Positions 1 through 26,621 of a stretch of 64,000 nt of DNA are shown here, piece after piece. Below the pieces are notes generated by a model that worked only from the letters and a program-made list of their open reading frames with translations, was not told the origin of the DNA and ran no database searches. The stretch's first letter is position 1; every line of letters begins with the position of its first letter. The position numbers were made by a program, and so were the translations under genes. Source of the stretch: Oopsacas minuta (lineage: Eukaryota; Animalia; Porifera); contig JAKMXF010000188.1 of the NCBI GenBank assembly GCA_024704765.1, positions 605,715-669,714 on the forward strand, written 5' to 3'.

Positions 1-560
1 TATTTCCGAATCGCTGGATTTTATCTTACCAAAGCCCTGTAATTTATATTTGTTACAGAATTTGTCCTAAAGTAAAATTAAGTTATGGTTTATACTATTT
101 ATCCTACATGTAATCTCTCTATTTTGAAAACTTATATTTTATCTCCGCGAATAAGATAGTAAAACAATCTAACGAACTGATCCTTATCAGATAGATAATT
201 AAGGTAATTGTTAATTATTTGTGCTTGTTTTGGTATTGTCACGCCAGCCAAAAGTTATATGGTCCCCTCTGACCTCATTTAGCTGGCCAAATTTGGTCGC
301 CAAAAATGTTCTCTATAGTTCAGATTAGGTCCCTCGGGCCAGTTTTAGCCAAACATAACTAGTCTGGGGACACTTTTGGTCGACTAAAGTTGGTCCAGGG
401 TCAAAATTTTTGAAATATCTCACCGACTTTCAAATTCGTTTACGGTAAAATTTAGAGTACCCCGAAAACAGAACAATATTGTGTACTTATTGATGTCCCG
501 TAATTCGCTAATAATAGACACAATTCACACAAAAGATGTTGCAGTTTAGGGACGTGCTTG
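1..560 (+). repeat. Dispersed repeat 'element A', copy 1; starts at or before the window edge
   Basis: 1–35 recurs at 9891–9925. 33–170 recurs at 12040–12175. The reverse complement of 165–560 recurs at 13130–13510. All alignments read directly from the sequence. Confidence 0.7.
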
Positions 561-1980
561 GTGTGCGCGCGTGCACACCAGTGTAATCGCGTGTATACCA
601 ACATGGTAGACCAACATGTTGGTGTACACGTGTGCACACTGGTGTATGGCCATGCAATAATAAAATGTTCTCTTCTGGTTCTTTATTAAATAATATAATT
701 AGCGATACATAGTTCTAATTATAGAGATACAAATATATTTAATTATAGTATATATATCTTAACTTTCCATAACAATTCAGTAATATGCAGAAATAGATTT
801 TCAGTAATATGCAGAAATAGATTTCTATTCAGCTCGGAACCTCAATCTATCACTGGGGAAAAGTACGTAATTATCTTTGTATTTTGACTTGTTTGTTCAG
901 TTTATAGCGATAGCAGACACAGAGTTTAAGGTTTGTTTGATTTGTGTCTATTTAGTAATAAATGTCTTTGGTTAATTGTTCCATAATTGTTCAGTTCGTA
1001 AATGGTCAACATTCTATTATAGTAATCTGGGATTTCTTCTCACAGAAATTTACCATAATTCTTCGACTGAAACACTTCGAAACCATTGTTATGCATGTAC
1101 TTGTGTCCACATTTATTACTAATCTACAAGGTTGAAACCAATTGAACCGAATATCAGTATTATGAATAGCAACCCAACCGGTTACTGATTTCGGTTTGCA
1201 ACCGAATATTGAACTATTCTCCAAACACAGTATTATTCGGTTGCAAACTTGCTAATTAATTTGTGTCTAGAATTTGTTCCCATCCATTCTAATCCAATCC
1301 ATGTTTGGATAAGACGCACACTCGGATAGTACTGAAAATATTGTTCCCCTCGGTGTACTGTTTTCCCCGAGTTCCACTTTTCGTAATTACCTTTAGCAAA
1401 TTGTTTTGAACAAACAATTAAGATTACTTACTACACTACTACATGGATGGCCTAGTAACTAGAACATCTTAATATGAACTAGATATGAACTAGACTCTAG
1501 TTCATATCTAATTACGTTACAACGGTTAACTCCGTACTGTTACCACATAATAATTCCAAATTGTCCAATACAAATTATTTATAATCTGCTTGACTACTCG
1601 TGTAGCGAAGTGTCTGTATTATCCAATTTAAAATAATTTTTGAGACTGAGCAATAAATCTTTATTTTATTCTAATTATAAACTAATGATTTGACAACTTA
1701 AAAGTCCTAAAAAATATTAAGTGATGACTTGTGTTATACGTAATGACTATTCTCTCTGCTAGTAGTATGTTATGTGAACTTGTTAAAACAAGTGTGACCC
1801 TTATGGCATTTAGTGTTGCAACTTCTACCTTATTTCTTGCAAGGGCACCTTAGTGTTTTACAGTGCTTACATCTACATGCTGAACCACTGAGCTCCAGAG
1901 AAGCACTTTGCATTGCTCCCGTTTGACTGACTATAGAAGTATGGCAAGACTCATTTGCACTGATTCTGAATGGACAAACA

Positions 1981-3433
1981 TCACTGATTCCTTGCATAGC
2001 CAGAGGAAATAGTGCCATGTGATGTAGCTACAGTATAAATAGGATCCTGTGCGTCGATGATATGACCCATAAGATTGCGTGGTCCAATCGAACTCATCTT
2101 ATCAGGTTGGGAAATGGGTATAAGCACAGTATCACCGATTTCAGCTGGTTTGAATTTTTTCCCACTTGACTTTAGCATACGATCATGTAGTGTTTCCTGA
2201 TTTCTTTTTATTCCTTTTCGTAAATGATGGGTATTTGTACTCTTTTCTTTGGGAAAACAACCTTGATACCACACTGAGCTCCCAAATCCCTCTTCCCCTT
2301 GTTGAATTCCGCAAGGTATGTGGACAAAACGACAACACTCAGGGCAAGAGTATACTCCACTTGTTTCATTCTCACATACAGCACAAAGTTAGTTGAATTG
2401 GTTGGATTTATATTTGAAACTATTGATGAACTACTAGATAGACGTCTGATGGGAAACTGTTTCTCAGTAATTAAATTATCTGATTCAAGAGCTCTAATTT
2501 GATTCTCCAGAATTACTGGAATACTTGATGTTGGGGTTTCAAAATTACTGTTATATTCTATACCATCGACAATTGTGCCAGGTGGAACTGTATCTAATAT
2601 TGAGAATTCATAATCGTCGGAAATAGGCGGGAACTTAGATAAATATGGAGACTGGTTCATTAGGATACTCTTCTGTATATGTAGGCACTTCGTTATCAGA
2701 CAAGTTAGATGATTCAGATGATTCATGAACAGATGCTGAGATTGGATCAGCAACAGATGTTTGTTAAAAGTTATTCAAATCGTCTTCGTTATTAATCACA
2801 CCTCAATGTTCTTTAGGAACATTAAGAGTGGCGAGTCCGAAGAATGGAGGTCTGCCATATACAGCTTCAAATGGCGTCATTCGAATAGTTGTATGGTAAC
2901 TTGTGTTGTAGTTAAATTTTACCCACTTTAAATACTGTACCCAGCATTGATTATTATTATTATCATGCATCATGGCAAATAATCCGTCTTTAACTTCTCT
3001 ATTCACACATTCTGCTGCCCCCTGACACTCAGGATGCCTGGGTTTGCCATGCACAATTTTCGTAGAGGGCCAAGTATCTCGCAAAGTTTCGAATAGAAGG
3101 CGATTTGAGAATTCTCCTCCATTATCAGAATGCAATATTAGAGGTGGGCCTTGATCGCAGAATATTTCAATTAAAATATCACGAACATTTTCTGCTGTTT
3201 TTCTAACTACGTAGTGGGACCAAGTTTATTTTTTTGGTAAAATGGTCAATGTAGACAAAAAGGTATTTATAGGGTGTGACTCCATCTGGTGACATGTTTT
3301 CAGCCAGATTCATATCTCTGAAATCTATGAGATCAATTTGACCTCTGCTCAGGTAATTTCTTGATACGATTGGCTTGGTAACTACAGACTTTATGGATTT
3401 CTTTCCCCTTTTTAGATGGCAAGTTGGACACAT
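1981..3433 (-). pseudogene. Ty3/gypsy-type integrase (rve core plus GPY/F module), fragmented by frameshifts
   Basis: ORF 3203..3433 carries CPTCH…GQIDLIDF…YLFVYIDHFTK (zinc-finger end plus first catalytic D). ORF 2803..3135 carries HSDNGGEF…HPECQGAAECVNREVK…YNTSYHTTIRMTPFEAVYG (second D and E). ORF 1981..2274 carries GDTVLI…GPRNLMGHII (GPY/F). The three pieces lie in different frames. Confidence 0.8.
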
Positions 3434-3705
3434 TTTGACATAAATACCACACAGTTCTTCAGTAACTCCAAGTAATATTGACTAACTCTCTTACACAATT
3501 TTGTCCTTCCTGAATGTTCGTGATTTTTGCGTGAAATTCTTCTAGGACATCGTAGATTTCATTACTTACCAATACTCTATTGGCATTGTGTCTGTTTGCT
3601 TCACGAAGGTATAGGGTTCCAACACTTTGATATGAAAGAAGTTTAAATCTATTCTGAACCCTTTGTCACTTTTGTCTTGCATTTTTTCTGTAGGTTTCTG
3701 TGATT

Positions 3706-3942
3706 TCAGGATGCAGATTTTTGCTCTATTTCTTCAGGTGAGAATATATTAATGGGTGAATCAGCCAGTTTCTTCTCGTCAAGAATTTTTATGAACTCTT
3801 CTCTTCCGGTAGGACCAGGGTTCAATTCAATATCTCCCGATAAAAGGAGAAGAATAGATAGATTTGGATATTTCCTTAATGATAACCATCGTGAGAAAGG
3901 AAATAGATGTTGTCGTTTGGTTTGAGATGAAGGGGAACGATA
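3706..3942 (-). other. Stop-to-stop ORF with no ATG, containing a canonical 2A-like ribosome-skipping motif; motif at 3811–3837
   Basis: The minus-strand translation reads …RKYPNLSILLLLSGDIELNPGPTGREEFIKILDEKK…. This matches the D(V/I)ExNPGP consensus exactly, with the hydrophobic upstream stretch typical of 2A peptides. It lies about 270 bp 5' of the integrase remnant on the same strand but in a different frame. Confidence 0.55.
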
Positions 3943-4424
3943 TTAAGAAACAATTTGGTAAGGCGCTGATGGTGATTATAAAATGCAACAAATATCTACG
4001 AGTTATCTGATTTTATCAAGTTAACCGGGATACACTTAGAGCTCGGATGGATATGTAGAGTACTTTTATAGAATTGAAGATCATCATTTGTCACCAATGG
4101 AATTAAGGATATAGTCCGTGCTTCGAGCTCGAGACCCACAATGTTTCCATGTAGAATGTACATAAAATACATTATTAGTAATATAATGACGAACTTTGGA
4201 ATGAAAATCATTGTATAATACAAGCAGTATTCAAGAAGATAAATATATCTTTCCTTGTGCTTGAGTATATATGTATTTAATATTTCCTCCAGCATACATT
4301 GTAATGTTGTCACAAATTATGTCATATTATTTTATATTAATTATTGATATTCCCTTTCATTTCTAGGTGCTAGCAACTCAAATACTTTTTCAAAGGATCG
4401 TGAAACATTACGATGTTGATAACA

Positions 4425-4487
4425 ATGATATAATAATGATATAATAATGATATAATAATGATATAATAATGATATAATAATGATAAT
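4425..4487. repeat. Minisatellite (ATGATATAATA)n, about 5.5 copies
   Basis: Direct tandem repetition seen in the sequence. Confidence 0.9.
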
Positions 4488-4818
4488 TAATGCACTGCAA
4501 CATATTTATTATGTTTAATTTCGTATTTAGTAAAGAACCAGAAGAGAACATTTTATTATGGCATGGCCATACATCAGTGTGTACACCAAGCACGTCCATA
4601 AACTGCAACACAAGCACTTAAGTTTTGTCCAATTTTTGAAATCTCAAAATTTGAAAAATTGCTTTGTCATCATCACCTCCACTATGGTGACGTCATGGTT
4701 ATGGTGGCCAATGCGTCCCTCCTAATATCTACTACACTTCATCAAATGTAAGTATTTCTCTAGCTGCATTGTTATAAAGTTCTTTGCGTTTCAAGTTAAA
4801 GTGGTTAATGACGTTTTT

Positions 4819-4914
4819 TTGACAAAATGGTCCGGGAGGACTATTTTTGTCAAATGTCAATATCCATGGTATTTGACAAAAAATGGTCCCCCCGGACCAT
4901 TTTTGTCAAAACAT
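4819..4914. repeat. Two adjacent 38-bp palindromes (TTTGACAAAATGGTCC…GGACCATTTTTGTCAAA)
   Basis: Each unit is self-complementary. The two copies sit at 4819–4856 and 4877–4914. Confidence 0.7.
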
Positions 4915-5094
4915 CTGTACAGAATGAAATTGTAATACCAATTATACTAAGATCCTTGGTAGGCGCAGCAGAAGTTGATAAATTTAGTTTTTATTCTACA
5001 AAATATAATTACTAGCAAAGAAAGATAAAATTGAATTTACGAATATTCATAGTCATTCTAAAAATGTTAAAATCGAATTCAACGTCCCTGTTTA

Positions 5095-5235
5095 CCACTA
5101 TTTAGCAATTGGAAGCTAATCTCTGGGATTATTTTGAACTGTTTACCAAAAGCTGTGAAAATATGATTAATCATATGATAAATCAGTGTATATATATTTA
5201 ATAGAATGTATTGACCAATAGAATTACAGTCTGCA
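5095..5235 (+). repeat. Dispersed repeat family R1 (core GTGAAAATATGATTAATCAT)
   Basis: The same about 140-bp unit occurs at 14105–14275, in tandem at 28000–28420, at 52640–52830 and inverted at 46430–46630 and 61890–62110. Confidence 0.6.
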
Positions 5236-5568
5236 TCATTACTAATTAAATTACAAACATTCCACCAAAATTAATTACATGCATTCATGCATAATTGTAA
5301 AAACCTACAATCTGATTGGTTTAAAATACAGCTGTCAAAAGGTATTAAATATACACATTAGAAGTTCCCAAATGTCAGGTGTACAACTAGATGTTACGAC
5401 GAGTATACGTACAAAATTGGTAACTTAATCTCTAAAGGTGTGAACAGCAGGGCGAAATTAGAGGAAGAAAGGTATTCAATTGATTGATCCCATGGTATCA
5501 AATAGTACCTTGAATAACTCAGTGAATGTATAAACACACTAATCACTATAATTGGGAAATAAACAACA

Positions 5569-9890: not shown

Positions 9891-9925
9891 TATTTCCGAA
9901 TCGCTGGATTTTATCTTACCAAAGC
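9891..9925 (+). repeat. Element-A 5' piece (identical to 1–35), truncated by insertion of the TIR element
   Basis: 35/35 identity to 1–35. The continuation of element A (33–170) resumes at 12040–12175. Confidence 0.8.
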
Positions 9926-12040
9926 AGTTTGCAGAAATCCATCCCCCGTTGCAAAATCGGTCCGGGGGGATCGATTTCTGCAAATAACTCAATGCAGAAA
10001 TCTATCCCCCCTTATATGTATTGTTTGTAAGTTTCAGGAGTGATTATATAATTGTTTTAGATTAATAAGCATGACTATCATTATACACTTAGCTGAAATA
10101 CTTCCTTCCATTAACAACAATATATTTATTATGTAATATATGTTACTACGTAAACAGTCAAATTACGTACTTTCGCAGGCTAATTATAGCCTCAGAGAAA
10201 GTCTAAGAGCAATACTTACAATTTTCGAAAAGTTTTATATTATTTCACATAAATGGATCTAAATGAGTATGTTGTTATTGAAGATTCCTTGAATCTGCGA
10301 AGGTATCCGCTCAATTCAACCAAAAATATCAAAAGAGGATTTTTAATTTTCTACTCTTTGGGGTAATAAAAAGTACAAATTATTCAATAAAAGTTCTACT
10401 CCCAGTGATACAACAACTATTAACTATTTCAAATGCTCCAAACCGTTCTGGAATGCAAATCCTGGATGTGGGAACTGAATCATTTTCGTCATTACAATCA
10501 CTAGAAGATATCTGCGTTGAATGAGGTGGGGAATACAGCGGAGTAAAGCTTGTCAACACTTGTCCCTTTGATAACATCATCACTATCCTAAGTATCCATC
10601 TGAAAACTATCTTGACTTCATTTGAGTTAGACTGCACTTCCGTTTCAGAAGATTTGGAAACGACTATGATTAAGGCTCGAAGTTTCAACCAATTAAGATG
10701 TTGGTTTGCACCTATACTAAATATCAAACTAGTTGATTCTCGTTACGATTTTATTGGGTACTAGAGATGTGTAACAAAACTATTGAAAGATCTACACTTG
10801 TGTTGTAATTTTTACCAAATTGAATTCCAGTGCTGGAGCTGTTCTTGTTGTTTTTCTGAAAGGAAAATTGACATATCTTCAATATACAACTTTACAAAAG
10901 GTTATCAGATGAGTATAGACACTCAAATCTCTTTAGCCTATCACTGCCTGAAATGTAGAGATGTTAGTGCAAACATTGAAGATATTTCTCATGTATTTAT
11001 AAGGATACCAACTGTCTTAATTGTTGAAGTTGGACACCTCAATGCGAAGCAACCTATCCAACCAATTCAAATCGATGATATTTTATCCCTAAAGCACAAA
11101 AACTACCGTCTATAATATAGTGTGATTGGCTACACTATCCATGCTAGACTACACTTTAACATGCGGATAACTTATGATGATATATGGTATAGTTATGATG
11201 GAATGGAACATCCTAAGATAGTTAAAACGAACAAATGTAGCGACATAACTTTAGGACTTATTTACTGTATCTTTTGTGTACTAACATCTATATACCCAAT
11301 TAGTTCTCAAATAGGTAGTTAACATCTGTATTATTGATGCTATTGTTTTTGTTCAAATATTTACCAGAACAGTTATTGACTCTTGATACGTAAGTTTTGA
11401 GGCAAATAAGCTAATATTAGTATACAATTACACAAAGATATACTAGTGATATGCAGTAGATACCGGTTATAAGGACATATTTTCATACACCGAGGGTGTT
11501 TTGTAAAGCGCTTTCCACTAGAGATTAATTTCTAATTTGATTAAAGTATACATTTATAAAAATACATAACTCTACCACAATTCTTCGTCTATTCTCCCGT
11601 TCGGATTAGCAAGGGTTATTATATATATATCTTAATAGCTTGAGAAACTTTTTGATTCAAAGTTTACTATTTTGAGTCAAAGTATCAAGTGAGAACCCAA
11701 ACATACATAAACTATAGCTGAACACAGATAAGATAACCTACGGGAAACAAAATTACTATGTATTATCCAAATACAACTATACTATCTATATACGTACAAT
11801 GTTTCTTGATTATCTATATCGTTATTATATTTATACTCATCACGTAATGCTAAGTGTATTATGATAGTCATGCTTATTAATCTAAAACAATTGTATAATC
11901 ACTCCTGAAACCTTACAAACAATACATGTAAGGAGGGATAGATTTCTGCATTGAGATATTTGCCGATATAAAACATTAACCTTATATTCAAGTCTGCTTA
12001 CCCCCTGATCGATTGTGTAGGGGATGGATCTCTGCAAAAC
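9926..12040. mobile_element. Non-autonomous TIR DNA transposon (about 2.1 kb) with about 170–190 bp terminal inverted repeats and a 5-bp TSD (AAAGC), inserted into a copy of element A
   Basis: Left TIR 9926–10093 and right TIR 11849–12040 are reverse complements (termini AGTTTGCAGAAATCCATCCCC / GGGGATGGATCTCTGCAAAAC). The flanking AAAGC at 9921–9925 is duplicated at 12041–12045. The uninterrupted target …ACCAAAGCCCTGTAATT… is seen at 26–45. Confidence 0.65.
10783..11322 (+). pseudogene. USP (peptidase C19)-like C-terminal fragment inside the TIR element; two ORFs with a frameshift
   Basis: YHCLKCRDVSANIEDISHVFIRIPTVLIVEVGHLNAKQ resembles the USP zinc-ribbon and 'P.vL.ihLkRF' segment. KNYRL/IGYTIHARLHF…DDIWYSYDGMEHPKIV resembles the His-box (YdL.aVv.H.G…GHY…WY.fdD..V). 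There is no N-terminal Cys box. Confidence 0.45.
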
Positions 12041-12175
12041 AAAGCCCTGTAATTTGCATTTGTTATAGAATTTGTCCTAAAGTAAAATTAAGTTATGGAA
12101 TTTATCCTACATGTAATCTCTCTATTTTGAAAACTTACATTTTATCTCCGCGAATAAGATACTCATCCTCATCAA
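12040..12175 (+). repeat. Element-A piece (matches 33–170)
   Basis: Direct alignment with a few substitutions. Confidence 0.8.
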
Positions 12176-12739
12176 GCGATCTGTACAATGTTTTACGAAA
12201 GCGATAGTGCACTTAACAATCACAAAGATTAAGATTCCGAAATTTCACTACTAGGGGTAAGCAGACTTGAATATAAGGTTGTATACTCCTGATTTGCATC
12301 AGATTGTACTAGTAATCAAAACAATTTATATAGAATATTGAAATAAAGTAATCTTTCCAACCTTTACTATGCTGACTATAGTATATGTATTCTATTGATC
12401 TCAATGGAATGTTTGCTTTTAGTTCCGTATGCCCTCTATAGATAAACGTTTACTTGATTAAGAGCTAAAAATTGGTCAAAGGGTTCGTTGTGAACTCTAA
12501 ATTTGCACCTTGGTATACTACTTTTGATCTGACACAATATGCCACTTTGTGCCACTTTAATATTTTCACATTGAAATTATACTAGTTTATGTACTATTAA
12601 GTACAAGGAGCAAAATTGCAGTATGAGGTTGTCTACACTATAGGATGGTACTAAAATAAATTTAGCTTAGTATACATTGAGTTTATTATGAAACAATAAT
12701 TATAATTATCAACACATTAGACATAATTTGCGCGTCATT

Positions 12740-13510
12740 AATCACTTTAACTTGAAACGCAAAGAACTTTATAACGATAGCAGCTAGAGAAATACTTACA
12801 TTTGATGAAGTGTAGTAGATATTAGGAGGGACGCATTGGCCACCATAACCATGACGTCACCATAGTGGAGGTGATGATGACAAAGCAATTTTTCAAATTT
12901 TGAGATTTCAAAAATTGGACAAAACTTAAGTGTTTGCACATATTCACAAAAATATTATGCTAAGTAGTCATGACGTCACGGAATACTAAAATGTTAATAA
13001 CTCCTTTTGTAACAGATAGAATAATACTTATAATTAATGGAATGTAGTAGAGGTTGGGCAGCATACATTGGAGAATATAATAATGACGTCATAGTGCCCT
13101 GAGATCTAGCGGAGCCCCTACTTATACCCCTATACGACAATAATACATCTTTTGTGTGAATTGTGTCTATCATTAGCGGATTACGGGAGATCAATAAGTA
13201 CACAATATTGTTCTGTTTTCGGGGTACTCTAAATTTTCCCTTAAACGAATTTGAAAGTCGGTGAGATATTTCAAAAATTTGACCCTGGACCAACTTTAGC
13301 CGACCAAAAGTGGCCCCAGACTAGTTATAGCTGGCAAAAACTGGCCCAAGGGACCTATCTCAACTATAGGGAACATTTTTGGCGACCAAATTTGGTCAGC
13401 TAAATGAGGTCAGGGGGGACCATATAATTTTTGGTTGGCGTGACAATACCAAAACAAGCACAAATAATTAACAATTATCTTAATTATCTATCTGATAAGG
13501 ATCAGTTCGT
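12740..13510 (-). repeat. Inverted duplicate of the flanks of the 547–4620 element: reverse complement of 4621–4790, then a 190-bp unique filler, then reverse complement of 165–560
   Basis: Reverse-complement alignment read from the sequence. It lacks the integrase element, so it represents the empty-site state. Confidence 0.75.
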
Positions 13511-13744
13511 TGGATTGTTTTTCATTTTGCCCCCACCCATCCCATGATTCTCCCCAATGCCTCTAATGGCTGTCATTAAATTAATAAGCATACTAAATTA
13601 TAATTAATATAAGTAAGGGCCGTGTATTTCATGTCAATAGACCTCCTATTAAGAGTACTAGATGCTCTGGGCATAGACTACTTGAATAAAGGACTGTAGG
13701 CTGCCAGACTCATCTTTAATTCCTTATCAAACTAAAATATTTAT

Positions 13745-13870: not shown

Positions 13871-14104
13871 TAGACTCATATAAGTGTACCAATGTTCATG
13901 TGAATCGGACTGCTAGATTTCGTATTTTACATATTAACTGCCTATAAAAATAAAAATCCCAAATCACAGTCTATGCGGACTTAAATTTATCAAATTTTTT
14001 AGTGGAGTATTGAAACTATACATTATTTATCAAATATCTATTTTAGCAAAGAGAAAGATAAAATTGAATTTTACTAATCTTATTAGACATTTAATATTGT
14101 CTCG

Positions 14105-14275
14105 AATTCCACGTCACTGTTTACCCCTATTTAACAGGTGAAGCTGATCTTTAGGATAATTTTGAAATGTTCACCAAAATCGTGAAAATATGATTAATCA
14201 TATGATAAATCAAAGGATATATATTTAATAGAGTGTATTGACCAATAGAATTACAGTCTACATGAATACAAATAC
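14105..14275 (+). repeat. R1 family copy
   Basis: About 85% identical to 5095–5235. Confidence 0.6.
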
Positions 14276-14734
14276 ATTACAGTGTTAAAATTCGCATACG
14301 CCTAGATGAAATCCTGGACCAAGGTTTGATCCAAGTTGGCCAACTGCAAAAACGTTAATGCACACCAATGGTAAGCCACTGTATTTATGAAAGGGGGTAA
14401 GAATCGGACGCAACAGGTCAGCTTTATAGAACTTGACTGGGACGTTGAATGTTCCCATTTAGGTTAGACCGTTTGAGTGAACAGGATAAATATATTCCAT
14501 TAGCTTTGTATTATCTGAACCAATAGAATTAACTCTGAATTCAATAGAAATCCTTTAATCCTTGGCTCAGGAAATAATTGGGTATATAGGCATTATATCA
14601 CTTAGGTAACAGTTAGATATATATTTAAAGGAATATTAGAATTACATAATAATCACCTTAGCACGAACACATATTATGAGAATATTGTTAAAGTTTGACG
14701 CCATTTACACCAAGTCATTGATGCAATATGTTTA

Positions 14735-23918: not shown

Positions 23919-26621
23919 CAGGCTTGGACCGGGTCATGATTTCCTGACCCGGTAGAAAAGGTTGAAACCTCTGACCCGGTGACCCGGTTTCGTTATTTGA
24001 CCCGGTTTTTCAAAACATTAATTTTCTATGTTCATGCGATTTGATAACGATTAGATTTTACTAAGTTTTAATATCCAGGGATTTGGCAATTAAAATCCAG
24101 GGAAATTTGTAGAAGGGGTTGATAAGTCTGAACAAGGCATAGTGTTTTAAAACTCGCCTAGGGTCCTAATAGTTAAAGTTGGGTTATATAGCAGCTGGGG
24201 CCCTAGTGTTTTCTGTTAGCACCATATTTTTGTTCCAGAAGTCCTGAAAATATGTTCTGATTTTGATATATGAAATTTACTATATTTAAGTAACGCTAAG
24301 AACAAATTATAATTATGATTAATGGAGATAAAGATTAGAAATATAATTGGAGATATACTAAGTGAAGTCTGTCATATTATCTTCTTTTTCAATGCATCAT
24401 TAAGAAGAACTAACCCTTCCACTGTATCTGGATTCAATTTTGCCCGATCTTTCCTCGTACCGCGACCGGCAGAACTAAAGTGGCGTTCCGATTCAGCCGA
24501 ACTAGCCTGAATTACTAAAAATGACTGTGACAGGAAACTGGGAATTGGGAATCTGCAACTGTGTTCCCCCCGCCACTTTATAGGATCAAAGATATCTTCA
24601 TCATATTGGATGGAAATGATCTTTTCATAGTCTGTTAATTCTGATCTCAAATTTTCTTCATTCCAATTCGTATAATTATTAGTTGAAACTGTAGTACTAA
24701 AGTTCCTAAAGCATAAAAGTGGATCTAATCTGTTACTTTTAGGAGCTGATGGCAGAAGAGGTTCATCTACCTGATTTTCCTGAATTTGGAATTGTGGGGG
24801 AGGAATTAATTTCTCTTTAAATGCAAGTATAATACCTTCTCTTGCAGTTTTAATGAAAATGATGCGATCTTGTTTATTCTTCACGAATAGAAATGATTTT
24901 AGTGTAGGATAGAGGTAAGTTGCAATAAAATGGATAGAATTTAGAGATGTCTACACCTTTTGTACAAGTTCTTCTGTCATTATTCGTTTCAGAATACGTG
25001 TTAATGGATCATCATCTGTTTCTATTTCCCAAGCATTTTGAAGAGCATAATATGAAGGTGCCACATTCTGAATACTAGCTATAGATCCAAATTCGAGGAT
25101 ATCAAATATACGATTAAGTTTTTCAAAAAACTTCGTGACGATAGCCAAAAGATTCAAGTCTATTCCTGCAACAATGTAAACCTTATTCTTCTCTGTTAAT
25201 ATGTCTGATAACTTTCCATATGACTGCAAAATCGAGTTAAACATTGAGTAAAGACTTCTCCATGGCCTTGTCTTACCACCTCTTTTCAGTGATATAGGTA
25301 GTTCCGATTGAATTCCAGATGATTTTTTGCAAATGTAACTGCCTTATTAACGTCTTCATGAAGCTGGTCGAGTTCCTCATTTTCCATCATAGCTCGTTCC
25401 CATCCAGTTTTAATCGCGGTATTAATTCTGTGACAGGCACAATCTATCCTAATCTTTTGTGCAGTAGCAGCCACCATATTTGCTCCCTTGTCTGTTGTAA
25501 CAGGAGTATTAACAGGATCACAATATACTTCTGTTAAAATTTGATCTAGTTCCAACTCAATATTTTCAGAGGTTTTTAATTTGGAAAAAACTTTGCAAGC
25601 ATACATAGCGCGTTTGAGGGTCCATAATTCTTTACCAATATCACTCTCATCCGTACCCTGTGAAATCCAGAAAAAGGAAACATCTAGGTAACTTCGATTC
25701 ATAACATTATCTGTCCAAAGATCTGTTGTGAAAGCAACAGCATCCCTCTGTATTGGATCTTGGAGTCTAGAACAAATATCTTGTTTGATAGTAATGATCT
25801 GTTCAACTGTTGATTTTGATATAGCCTTTCGTCCAGGAAGTATATTAGAAGCACTCACATTACCATATTTAGCACCAATTCTGATCATTTCTTGAGAGAA
25901 AAGGATGAATTGTGGATTTCCAATGGTATTAAATGACAAAAATGCCCCCGCAACGAAATTCTACTAGAGATAAGAATTTTTGAGCATCCTGTTTATTTAT
26001 AATCCTTAGAACTTCTATTAAGAAGAGACGTGATTCTAACCTGTGAGGATGATGATACATCTGGACTACAATGTCGTGTGTGATCATTCAAATTCTTTGT
26101 TCCATAATCAATAATCTTACCACTGTCCATTTTCATTTTATCAATAATGCATTTGAGACAATGGTTACAGCATGATACTCCAAAAATAATGTTTCCGTTA
26201 TCGTTCAAAACTTCTGAAAAATATTTCCAACAAGTACTTATGTTCAAACGTGTGGAAGATTTTACTTTTAAGGTATAAATCTCATTTTCAACTTTCTTAC
26301 TAATACCAGCACAATCCATCTCTAAACATACAAAAGTATATTACATATCTATATACGTACATAAGAGTATATATGTATATAAGTATACAGTAGTAATGAT
26401 ACCAAACAAGTTAGTAAAATACTAATGATTCATGAAAATGAAACGTGTAACTAGTATTGACTGAATCTTTATGATTTACAAACCGTTATAATTTAATTAT
26501 CTATAAAGATATAAACCGGGTCAAGTCAAAATCAGTGACCCGGTTCAGACCCGGTAATTTATTTAAAATAGTGACCCGGTTGACCCGATGACCCGGTTTA
26601 TTCGTGACCCGGTCCAAGCCT
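23919..26621 (-). mobile_element. hAT-superfamily DNA transposon (about 2.7 kb), probably inactive
   Basis: Terminal inverted repeats CAGGCTTGGACCGGGTCA (23919–) and TGACCCGGTCCAAGCCTG (–26621). Multiple subterminal GACCCGGT repeats at both ends. No matching 8-bp TSD was found (ATAGCTAC versus AGTGACAC). Confidence 0.8.
24372..26319 (-). pseudogene. hAT transposase split over four frames: BED zinc finger, catalytic region, and hAT dimerisation domain
   Basis: ORF 25993..26319 has a BED-type C2H2 motif (CWKYF…CCNHC…H…HC). ORF 25286..25939 has …FTTDLWTDNVMNRSYLDVSFFWI…. ORF 24372..24884 has …SSAESERHFSSAGRGTRKDRAKLNPDTVEGLVLLN, the hAT C-terminal dimerisation motif. Confidence 0.75.

Follow-up and report, generated by a model that had tools for sequence, protein, structure and literature searches.

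Between positions 537 and 4610, the window analysed here (the whole 64-kb stretch of the glass sponge Oopsacas minuta) contains a segment that is most likely a Ginger2-type cut-and-paste DNA transposon in a decayed state (probability roughly 0.85). It is bounded by terminal inverted repeats (TIRs) starting TGTTGCAG and holds, on the minus strand, the remains of a single integrase-like gene. Just upstream of this gene lies a sequence encoding a 2A-like peptide, which recurs at the same place in other lineages of the family and might act as a recoding leader of the transposase.

Complete relatives, element ends and the transposase gene

The class assignment is carried above all by complete copies mapped at loci of eight relatives in ENA assemblies, which are more distant than the closest O. 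minuta paralog (P0001). There are nine such copies, 2.6-4.7 kb long, each delimited by a TGTTGCAG...CTGCAACA end pair and flanked by a perfect 4-bp target site duplication (TSD); seven of the end pairs directly enclose one transposase gene, and the remaining two are outer pairs around a nested copy. The TSDs (TACA three times, TATA twice, and TAAA, TTTA, CATG and TTCA once each) are mostly AT-rich and in none of the nine is CCGG, the TIRs measure 50-300 nt, and the termini are TGTTG and CAACA throughout, with single substitutions in L001 (last base) and L008 (CAATA). These traits can be set beside those published for Ginger2, i.e., TIRs of 50-180 bp, a 4-bp TSD, TGTNR termini, an AT-rich target and an H2C2 + DDE protein with no GPY/F or YPYY (PMC2836005). 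The earlier note on this DNA had preferred a Ginger-type element (integrase plus TIRs) to one with long terminal repeats (LTRs), had proposed looking for additional copies with TSDs, and had held that full-length copies with LTRs and a reverse transcriptase (RT) upstream of the integrase would speak against its view. Its preference is supported, and refined to Ginger2, by the nine complete relatives, all of them with TIRs and 4-bp TSDs, since neither LTRs nor RT were found in the intact relatives. A 6-bp TSD adjoining GTTGCAG termini had also been entertained, and was dropped in favour of the 4-bp TSD and TGTTG after comparing all copies and the Ginger2 definition.

The ends of the window copy (TGTTG and CAACA here as well) were set with an inverted-repeat finder and with a terminal 28-mer, TGTTGCAGTTTAKGGACGTGCTTGGTGT, which occurs exactly twice in the window, on opposite strands (0.00 expected from shuffles). 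Because the inverted arms and the 28-mer pair mark the ends of the element, the flanking TIRs described previously are retained, and their coordinates (547-4620) are shifted by about 10 nt. The repeat finder gives outer arms of 28 nt (537-564/4583-4610, 96%) and subterminal arms of 63 nt (630-692/4524-4586, 94%), lying within ends of 156 and 87 nt, respectively. The extra 65 nt of the left end (565-629) consist of GGTGT...ACACC palindromes, which are gone from the right end, where they look as if they had been deleted between two TGGTGT repeats. In two further assemblies (loci L007 and L008) the ends share the terminal sequence and the palindromes of the window copy, with a nearly identical terminus (TGTTGCAGTT[T/A]ATGGACGTGCT..GGTGTGC.CGCGTGCACACCAGTGTA), and this terminus adjoins a gene of the same transposase lineage, whose nucleotide sequence is 73-75% identical to that of the window copy over 2 kb (75% for L008). 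Having the same TIR type beside the same gene lineage, these loci indicate that the TIRs and the gene belong together; on this comparison, the termini show stronger conservation than the coding sequence.

Each assembly holds many diverged copies of the family. In L003 (7032-11755) and L004 (7168-11316), copies have inserted at a TATA site inside another copy's TIR, which results in tandem TGTTGCAG ends, and therefore the family tends to insert into itself. The non-coding part of the window copy contains a perfect 24-nt tandem duplication (TTCAGTAATATGCAGAAATAGATT twice, 776-823) and an array of about seven (ATAATAATGAT)n units (4417-4495), as well as an internal terminus-like sequence, ATGCACTGCAACA, at 4490-4502, followed by TATT and situated 108 nt inside the right end, which is similar to the ends of the L003-type subfamily. 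Within the element no partner for it was found, and it is therefore taken as a nested-insertion remnant, which may come from a later, mostly deleted member of the family.

Regarding the coding sequence, three minus-strand frames together make up one broken integrase-like gene, a reading that requires at least half a dozen frame changes and runs through several in-frame stops. In the frame-stitched translation, Pfam rve is matched at E 7e-10 (above the curated cut-off) and Integrase_H2C2 at E 0.0015 (below it); the catalytic D, D and E are readable on the minus strand (Table 1), and the two His and two of the Cys positions of the H2C2 finger are invariant in the protein alignment (A1). A six-frame Pfam scan of the element with stops masked returned rve and Znf_SCAND3 (PF23663) only, bearing out the lack of RT, RNase H and protease that had been reported and adding gag and the chromodomain to the list of what is missing. 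The C-terminal half contains a CxxC...CPxC finger, an SH3-like stretch (GDTVLIPISQPDKMSSIGPRNLMGHII) and a Cys-rich tail. The gene had previously been described as a Ty3/gypsy-type integrase with HHCC, DDE and GPY/F: the HHCC and DDE parts hold, the gypsy affiliation gives way to a KRBA2/SCAND3-like one, and the GPY/F motif is withdrawn, since the gypsy C-terminal SH3/GPY-F domain (PF24626), which is present in distant gypsy matches, was not matched in Pfam scans of the element and its intact relatives. The same scans gave no SCAN, KRAB, OTU or Ulp1 domain, and no YPYY motif is visible in the protein alignment.

The best homolog of the stitched protein is an O. minuta 'SCAN domain-containing' protein (88% identity), and other relatives with 40-63% identity carry rve and Znf_SCAND3, among them about 20 proteins (40-61%) encoded on large eukaryotic contigs in ENA assemblies. 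The first named relative from outside is an aphid 'KRBA2-like' protein (E 2e-47); no gypsy polyprotein matches better than E 1e-17. Entries named 'KRAB-A domain-containing protein 2', from Oopsacas, Trichinella, shrimp and sturgeon, were recovered in addition with a profile, and the broader family comprises 345 cluster representatives at E <= 1e-30. A comparison of the H2C2 + DDE region gives identities of 50-63% between the window copy and the sponge-type family, and BLASTP identities of 38-43% to KRBA2-like proteins versus 25-29% to gypsy integrases. The integrase-core phylogeny suggested in the earlier note agrees with this in outline: in a rough neighbour-joining (NJ) tree, with KRBA2-like proxies in place of curated Ginger1, Ginger2 and TDD references (Repbase, TDD-4), the family and the KRBA2-like proteins group apart from six gypsy integrases. 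KRBA2 and SCAND3 themselves have been placed inside Ginger2 by Llorens et al. 2012 (PMC3575427).

The 2A-like leader and a possible mechanism

On the minus strand, ...LSILLLLSGDIELNPGP is encoded directly ahead of the transposase, which begins with TGREEF, and it includes the motif D-I-E-L-N-P-G-P at 3834-3811, which corresponds to the canonical 2A/StopGo motif D(V/I)ExNPGP (LLLLSGDIELNPGP). Assuming a 1-nt frameshift, the leader of the window copy would be about 27 residues long from the ATG at 3889. The motif is not a chance occurrence, because it is found at the same place in other lineages (Table 1); the cluster representatives P0173 and P0195 also carry it, making at least seven lineages in all, and P0064 has a decayed version (GDIESKTGP). 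It is preceded by hydrophobic tracts, read by eye as LSILLLLSG, FTFILLLSG, VELLLKLSG, LIILIAG and LFILLGG, and in the alignment its final proline falls 1-2 residues before the initiator Met position of relatives lacking 2A (P0002, P0003, P0004, P0008 and P0009). The P-G-P codons vary at the third position between lineages (CCT GGT CCT, CCC GGA CCA and CCA GGC CCC), AAC for Asn is constant across the 2A lineages, and the peptide is unchanged; such synonymous changes with the peptide kept point to selection on the peptide. The lineages concerned form neighbouring branches of the NJ tree, beside the P0002/P0008 group, and the full motif is present in 5 of the 288 family proteins retrieved, all of them predicted proteins. 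Outside Ginger2 genes, the motif was found once in all the loci scanned, at about 20480 (+) of L001, where a canonical 2A-like sequence (SILLIIGGVEINPGPG) that does not adjoin a Ginger2 gene probably comes from a different element, so that 2A-like leaders may be common in these genomes.

It is possible, at what we judge to be somewhat less than even odds, that in a Ginger2 clade of sponge-type genomes an N-terminal 2A/StopGo leader serves to detach the transposase from an upstream product, which could be either the signal-like hydrophobic leader itself or a host peptide on a read-through transcript. The observed anatomy of the family (termini, TSD length, single gene, domain set and conserved 2A position) allows a mechanism for its live members to be sketched. 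They have a single intronless gene for a DDE transposase composed of H2C2 finger, rve core, SCAND3-type zinc finger, SH3-like segment and Cys-rich tail; judging from what is known of DDE transposases and Ginger2, this protein would bind the TGTTGCAG ends and the GGTGT...ACACC palindromes in the 50-300-nt TIRs, excise the element and insert it elsewhere, chiefly at AT-rich sites, by a cut with a 4-bp stagger. In one clade, to which the window copy belongs, translation would start on a hydrophobic leader of about 26-48 residues ending in GD(V/I)E(L/S)NPGP, and the ribosome, by analogy with known 2A peptides, would skip the last G-P bond, releasing the leader and a transposase that starts with Pro. 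The 2A could make the output of transposase independent of upstream translation; alternatively, it could split the product between two cellular destinations, as has been shown for sea-urchin NLR leaders (PMC4981915).

In the literature covered, 2A-like sequences are known from RNA viruses, from retroelements (near the N-terminus of the ORF2 protein in non-LTR elements, and also in some other reverse-transcribing ones) and from a few host genes, NLRs among them (PMC3708506, PMC4981915). DNA transposons are not mentioned in these two papers, nor in a 2026 survey of 2A (bioRxiv 10.64898/2026.09.24.754024), and a literature search for 2A-like sequences in DNA transposons, of partial coverage and hence no proof of novelty, found nothing relevant.

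Alternative readings and the history of the locus

Which other readings could account for an integrase gene between inverted repeats? Ty3/gypsy elements are recognised by direct LTRs and by a pol in which protease, RT and RNase H precede the integrase. The segment could be a rearranged fragment of one of them, with only the integrase left and with inverted repeats that are due to chance or secondary, as the rve core and H2C2 finger, common to gypsy integrases, and the distant gypsy polyproteins matched at E 1e-17 and weaker might suggest. However, the domains listed above are missing in every frame, GPY/F included, the repeat finder detected no flanking direct LTR-like repeats around the gene, the protein is closer to KRBA2-like proteins than to gypsy integrases, and the nine complete relatives are integrase-only elements with TIRs and 4-bp TSDs. 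Ruled out by the lack of direct repeats and RT and by the architecture of the relatives, this reading deserves next to no credence. Hardly more credible is that the gene is a pseudogene of a domesticated host gene (a KRBA2/SCAND3-like 'cellular integrase') and the inverted repeats belong to something else. The O. minuta paralogs do bear the names 'SCAN domain-containing protein' and 'KRAB-A domain-containing protein 2', but these are automatic transfers, with neither a SCAN nor a KRAB domain behind them; moreover, the independent assembly of L008 has the same TIR around the same gene lineage, with a TSD, and each assembly holds many diverged copies, with nested self-insertions in L003 and L004. 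A composite, in which the outer TIRs come from a short non-autonomous element and an unrelated autonomous element was inserted inside, would fit the internal terminus-like sequence and the habit of the relatives of nesting in each other's TIRs. It is nonetheless unlikely, given that L007 and L008 carry the same outer TIR type beside the same transposase lineage, that there is no matching inner left end, and that an inner terminus of the L003 type is more simply explained as a nested-insertion remnant; outer TIRs from an unrelated miniature inverted-repeat transposable element (MITE) were ruled out on the basis of the same two loci.

The assignment to Ginger2 and the reading of the leader as 2A nevertheless have several observations to contend with. 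The Pfam match to H2C2 stays below the curated cut-off in every family member (1e-4 to 1e-3 in the relatives), and it is through KRBA2-like proxies, together with the SCAND3 zinc finger and structural traits, that the family is placed in Ginger2. The window copy has no TSD, its flanks reading ...AAGA before TGTTG and CAAG... after CAACA, and the internal terminus at 4490-4502 shows that the history of the 5' part is more complex than a simple insertion. As for the leader, most family members are without 2A, and in the window copy the start codon is reached only by assuming a frameshift.

The window copy is an immobile fossil: with a broken open reading frame (ORF), a frameshifted leader and an upstream TIR devoid of the palindromic motifs, it is incapable of transposition. 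Its flanks (b on the left and c on the right) have inverted paralogs about 8 kb away, as the earlier note had seen; their identities measure 94% and 98%. The same note had called the paralogous locus an empty site with 190 bp of unrelated filler; on re-examination, the filler measures 208 nt, is related to flank c, and constitutes an ancestral segment that the element's locus lacks, so that the site is not empty in that sense. It aligns with flank c over about 130 nt with a local score of 80 (shuffles 32 +/- 5.6, maximum 50), sharing the blocks TGACGTCAT, CCAATG and CTACTACA, and it has no other significant match within the element or elsewhere in the window. Judging by this alignment, it goes back to an ancient tandem duplication of flank c, of which it is the diverged copy (c'), the ancestral order being b-c'-c. 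Since the filler is only about 65% like flank c, versus 94-98% between the paralogous flank copies, the c'/c tandem duplication predates the A/B duplication that produced the two copies of the locus.

At the element's locus c' is absent, and the element lies flush between b and c, which suggests an insertion accompanied by loss of flanking DNA. Most simply, the element would have inserted at one edge of c', and a deletion of about 210 nt from one terminus, accompanying or following the insertion, would have removed c' together with one TSD copy; the window copy would thus have no TSD because that stretch of flank was lost flush with one terminus. Alternatively, the element could once have been present at the paralogous site and then been excised, in which case the 208 nt would be filler DNA from break repair, in accordance with the filler starting with TGT (the first three bases of the element) and sitting exactly between both flanks. 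Recent templated repair, however, would have left a sequence near-identical to c instead of one with about 65% similarity, for which reason excision plus filler was ruled out, and the missing TSD at the element's locus would remain unexplained; we regard this course of events as very unlikely.

In the wider surroundings, the b-c segment is inverted between the two copies and the outer segments are direct, and hence the element lies in a rearranged segmental duplication. This duplication spans about 5 kb, and in its second copy the inversion junctions contain an additional 570 and 520 nt. The window as a whole is AT-rich, and three of its long ORFs correspond to exact full-length O. minuta proteins (Integrator subunit 5, a SEC20-like protein and LOD99_2109).

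Other repeats were observed along the window. A 2.1-kb element with TIRs (9926-12024; left end AGTTTGCAGAAATCCATCCCC, right end ...GGGGATGGATCTCTGCAAAAC(A)) interrupts the second copy of a direct duplication, whose first copy (about 25-40) keeps the uninterrupted site ccaaagccctg; depending on where the ends are drawn, its TSD is AAGC, AAAGC or CAAAGC. The likeness between its terminus and that of the Ginger2 copy, pointed out in the earlier note, is real and limited to a few bases (TTTGCAGA vs TGTTGCAG). No Pfam domain was found on the two plus-strand frames of it that were scanned, and a C-terminal stretch, YRL.YSVIGYTIHARLHF...WYSYDG, looks protein-like. Just past flank c there is a near-perfect hairpin (4817-4911; arms 4824-4848 and 4879-4903, AAAATGGTCCGGGAGGACTATTTTT), which may be a small foldback or MITE-like repeat, and a related motif is found inside the 2.1-kb element at 9952-9980. 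Finally, two minus-strand ORFs of 170 and 217 residues at 24372-25939 resemble, by eye, pieces of a hAT-type transposase (...SSAESERHFSSAGR...).

Table 1. Positions of the element, its parts and its paralogous flanks in the window, and of complete copies and 2A-like leaders at the loci of relatives
Feature	Sequence	Position	Strand	Remarks
Left end (3' end in gene orientation)	window	537-692		TGTTG terminus, 28-nt TIR, palindromes 565-629, arm 630-692
3' non-coding interior	window	693-1769	-	about 1.1 kb, no recognisable domain; about 0.6 kb longer than in L008
Degenerate Ginger2-type transposase gene (putative)	window	1770-3810	-	several frameshifts and in-frame stops
Stop codon	window	1772-1770	-	end of transposase gene
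Cys-rich CXC tail	window	1877-1788	-	transposase gene
SH3-like segment	window		-	transposase gene; GDTVLIP...IGPRNLMGHII
Znf_SCAND3 zinc finger	window	about 2361-2254	-	transposase gene
Variable acidic linker	window		-	transposase gene
DDE core	window	D 3334-3332, D 3126-3124, E 3012-3010	-	transposase gene
H2C2 zinc finger	window	about 3535-3419	-	transposase gene
Leader ending in 2A-like peptide	window	3811-3889	-	ATG 3889-3887, inferred 1-nt frameshift, ...LSILLLLSG-DIELNPGP, then TGREEF
5' non-coding interior	window	3890-4523	-	(ATAATAATGAT)n array and internal terminus-like sequence
Right end (5' end in gene orientation)	window	4524-4610		same terminal 28 nt and arm; about 65 nt of palindromic motifs deleted
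Left flank b	window	161-539		inverted paralog 13145-13521; 94% over 379 nt
Right flank c	window	4611-4813		inverted paralog 12733-12936; 98% over 204 nt
'Filler' c' between paralogous flanks	window	12937-13144		208 nt; local alignment to flank c
Inverted middle part (flanks b, c)	window	161-4813 / 12733-13521
Outer direct repeat	window	1-158 / 9891-9925 + 12040-12161
Outer direct repeat	window	5013-5255 / 14044-14281
Complete copy	L001	9472-13064		TSD TAAA
Complete copy	L002	9679-12424		TSD TTTA
Complete copy (inner)	L003	7168-10624		TSD TATA
Complete copy (outer)	L003	7032-11755		TSD TACA; encloses nested copy
Complete copy	L004	2369-6304		TSD TACA
Complete copy (outer pair)	L004	7168-11316		TSD TACA; encloses nested copy
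Complete copy	L005	7329-10682		TSD CATG
Complete copy	L006	7217-10805		TSD TATA
Complete copy	L008	7881-10511		TSD TTCA
2A motif at same place	L003/L004 (P0011)			LLLKLSGDVESNPGP, then TRYDEF
2A motif at same place	L005 (P0014)			ILIAGDIELNPGP, then QPKEES
2A motif at same place	L006 (P0013)			ILLGGDIESNPGP, then QSREES
2A motif at same place	L007			MARGLLSFMYYFTFILLLSGDIELNPGP, then TRREEF; leader 28 residues

Significance and comparison with known systems

The O. minuta genome consists of 34% interspersed repeats and 15% DNA transposons, and Ginger is not mentioned in the paper describing it or in its supplements (PMC10280926). Taken simply as the relic of a transposon, the element is nothing unusual; it extends the hosts of Ginger2 to Porifera (Hexactinellida), and it reveals O. 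minuta proteins annotated as 'SCAN domain-containing' or 'KRBA2' to be transposon genes. The locus, in turn, offers a small example of transposon-associated rearrangement, with an insertion and a flush flanking deletion within an inverted segmental duplication. A conserved 2A at the start of the transposase would widen the range of elements using such recoding, and the family would supply compact natural 2A variants. If the proposed role holds, a class II transposon would here, for the first time, have taken up 2A recoding, in parallel to the N-terminal 2A of non-LTR ORF2, which would suggest expression modules that are either convergent or horizontally exchanged between retroelements and DNA transposons. 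It would also bear on a more general question: do mobile elements place 2A N-terminally for the sake of independence from upstream translation, of dual targeting, or of dosage control?

Among the known elements with an integrase-like protein, Polintons/Mavericks span 15-20 kb, encode a protein-primed DNA polymerase B, capsid, ATPase and protease, and produce a 6-bp TSD, unlike the family described here, with its 2.6-4.7 kb, one gene and 4-bp TSD. Ginger1 (and GIN1) resembles it in having an integrase-like transposase between TIRs and TGTNR termini, but differs in its TSDs, which are CCGG/CCGT-specific, in the motifs YPYY and GPY/F, and in an OTU or Ulp1 protease at the C-terminus; none of these features was found here. 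The closest correspondence is with Ginger2/TDD (Bao, Kapitonov & Jurka 2010, PMC2836005; for example, Ginger2-1_NV and Ginger2-1_TS), with which the family has in common a single H2C2 + DDE transposase with no RT, GPY/F or YPYY, TGTNR termini (here TGTTG), 4-bp TSDs at mostly AT-rich targets, a length of 2.6-4 kb and TIRs of tens to a few hundred bp (about 50-180 by the criterion, and up to about 300 in TDD). It differs in its poriferan (hexactinellid) host, not listed in PMC2836005 or PMC3575427, in the 2A-like leader fused before the transposase in one clade, in the TIRs of some relatives, reaching about 300 nt with repeated GGTGT...ACACC palindromes, and in the window copy being without TSD. 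Mammalian KRBA2 and SCAND3/ZBED9 (PMC3575427) share with it the rve core followed by a SCAND3-type zinc finger (PF23663), and the best named database relatives of the family are 'KRBA2-like'. These mammalian proteins are encoded by domesticated single-copy host genes, with KRAB or SCAN fused and without TIRs, whereas the gene described here is multi-copy, lies between TIRs with TSDs, and has neither KRAB nor SCAN.

Regarding the leader, the systems to be compared are APE-type non-LTR retrotransposons (Odon et al. 2013, PMC3708506) and sea-urchin NLRs (Roulston et al. 2016, PMC4981915). Unlike in these, the protein downstream is here the transposase of a class II DNA transposon. Its 2A activity is predicted from the motif. 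The likeness lies in a short hydrophobic N-terminal leader that ends in D(V/I)ExNPGP and extends to its length, with 28 residues in L007 and 26 in the sea-urchin NLR (PMC4981915).

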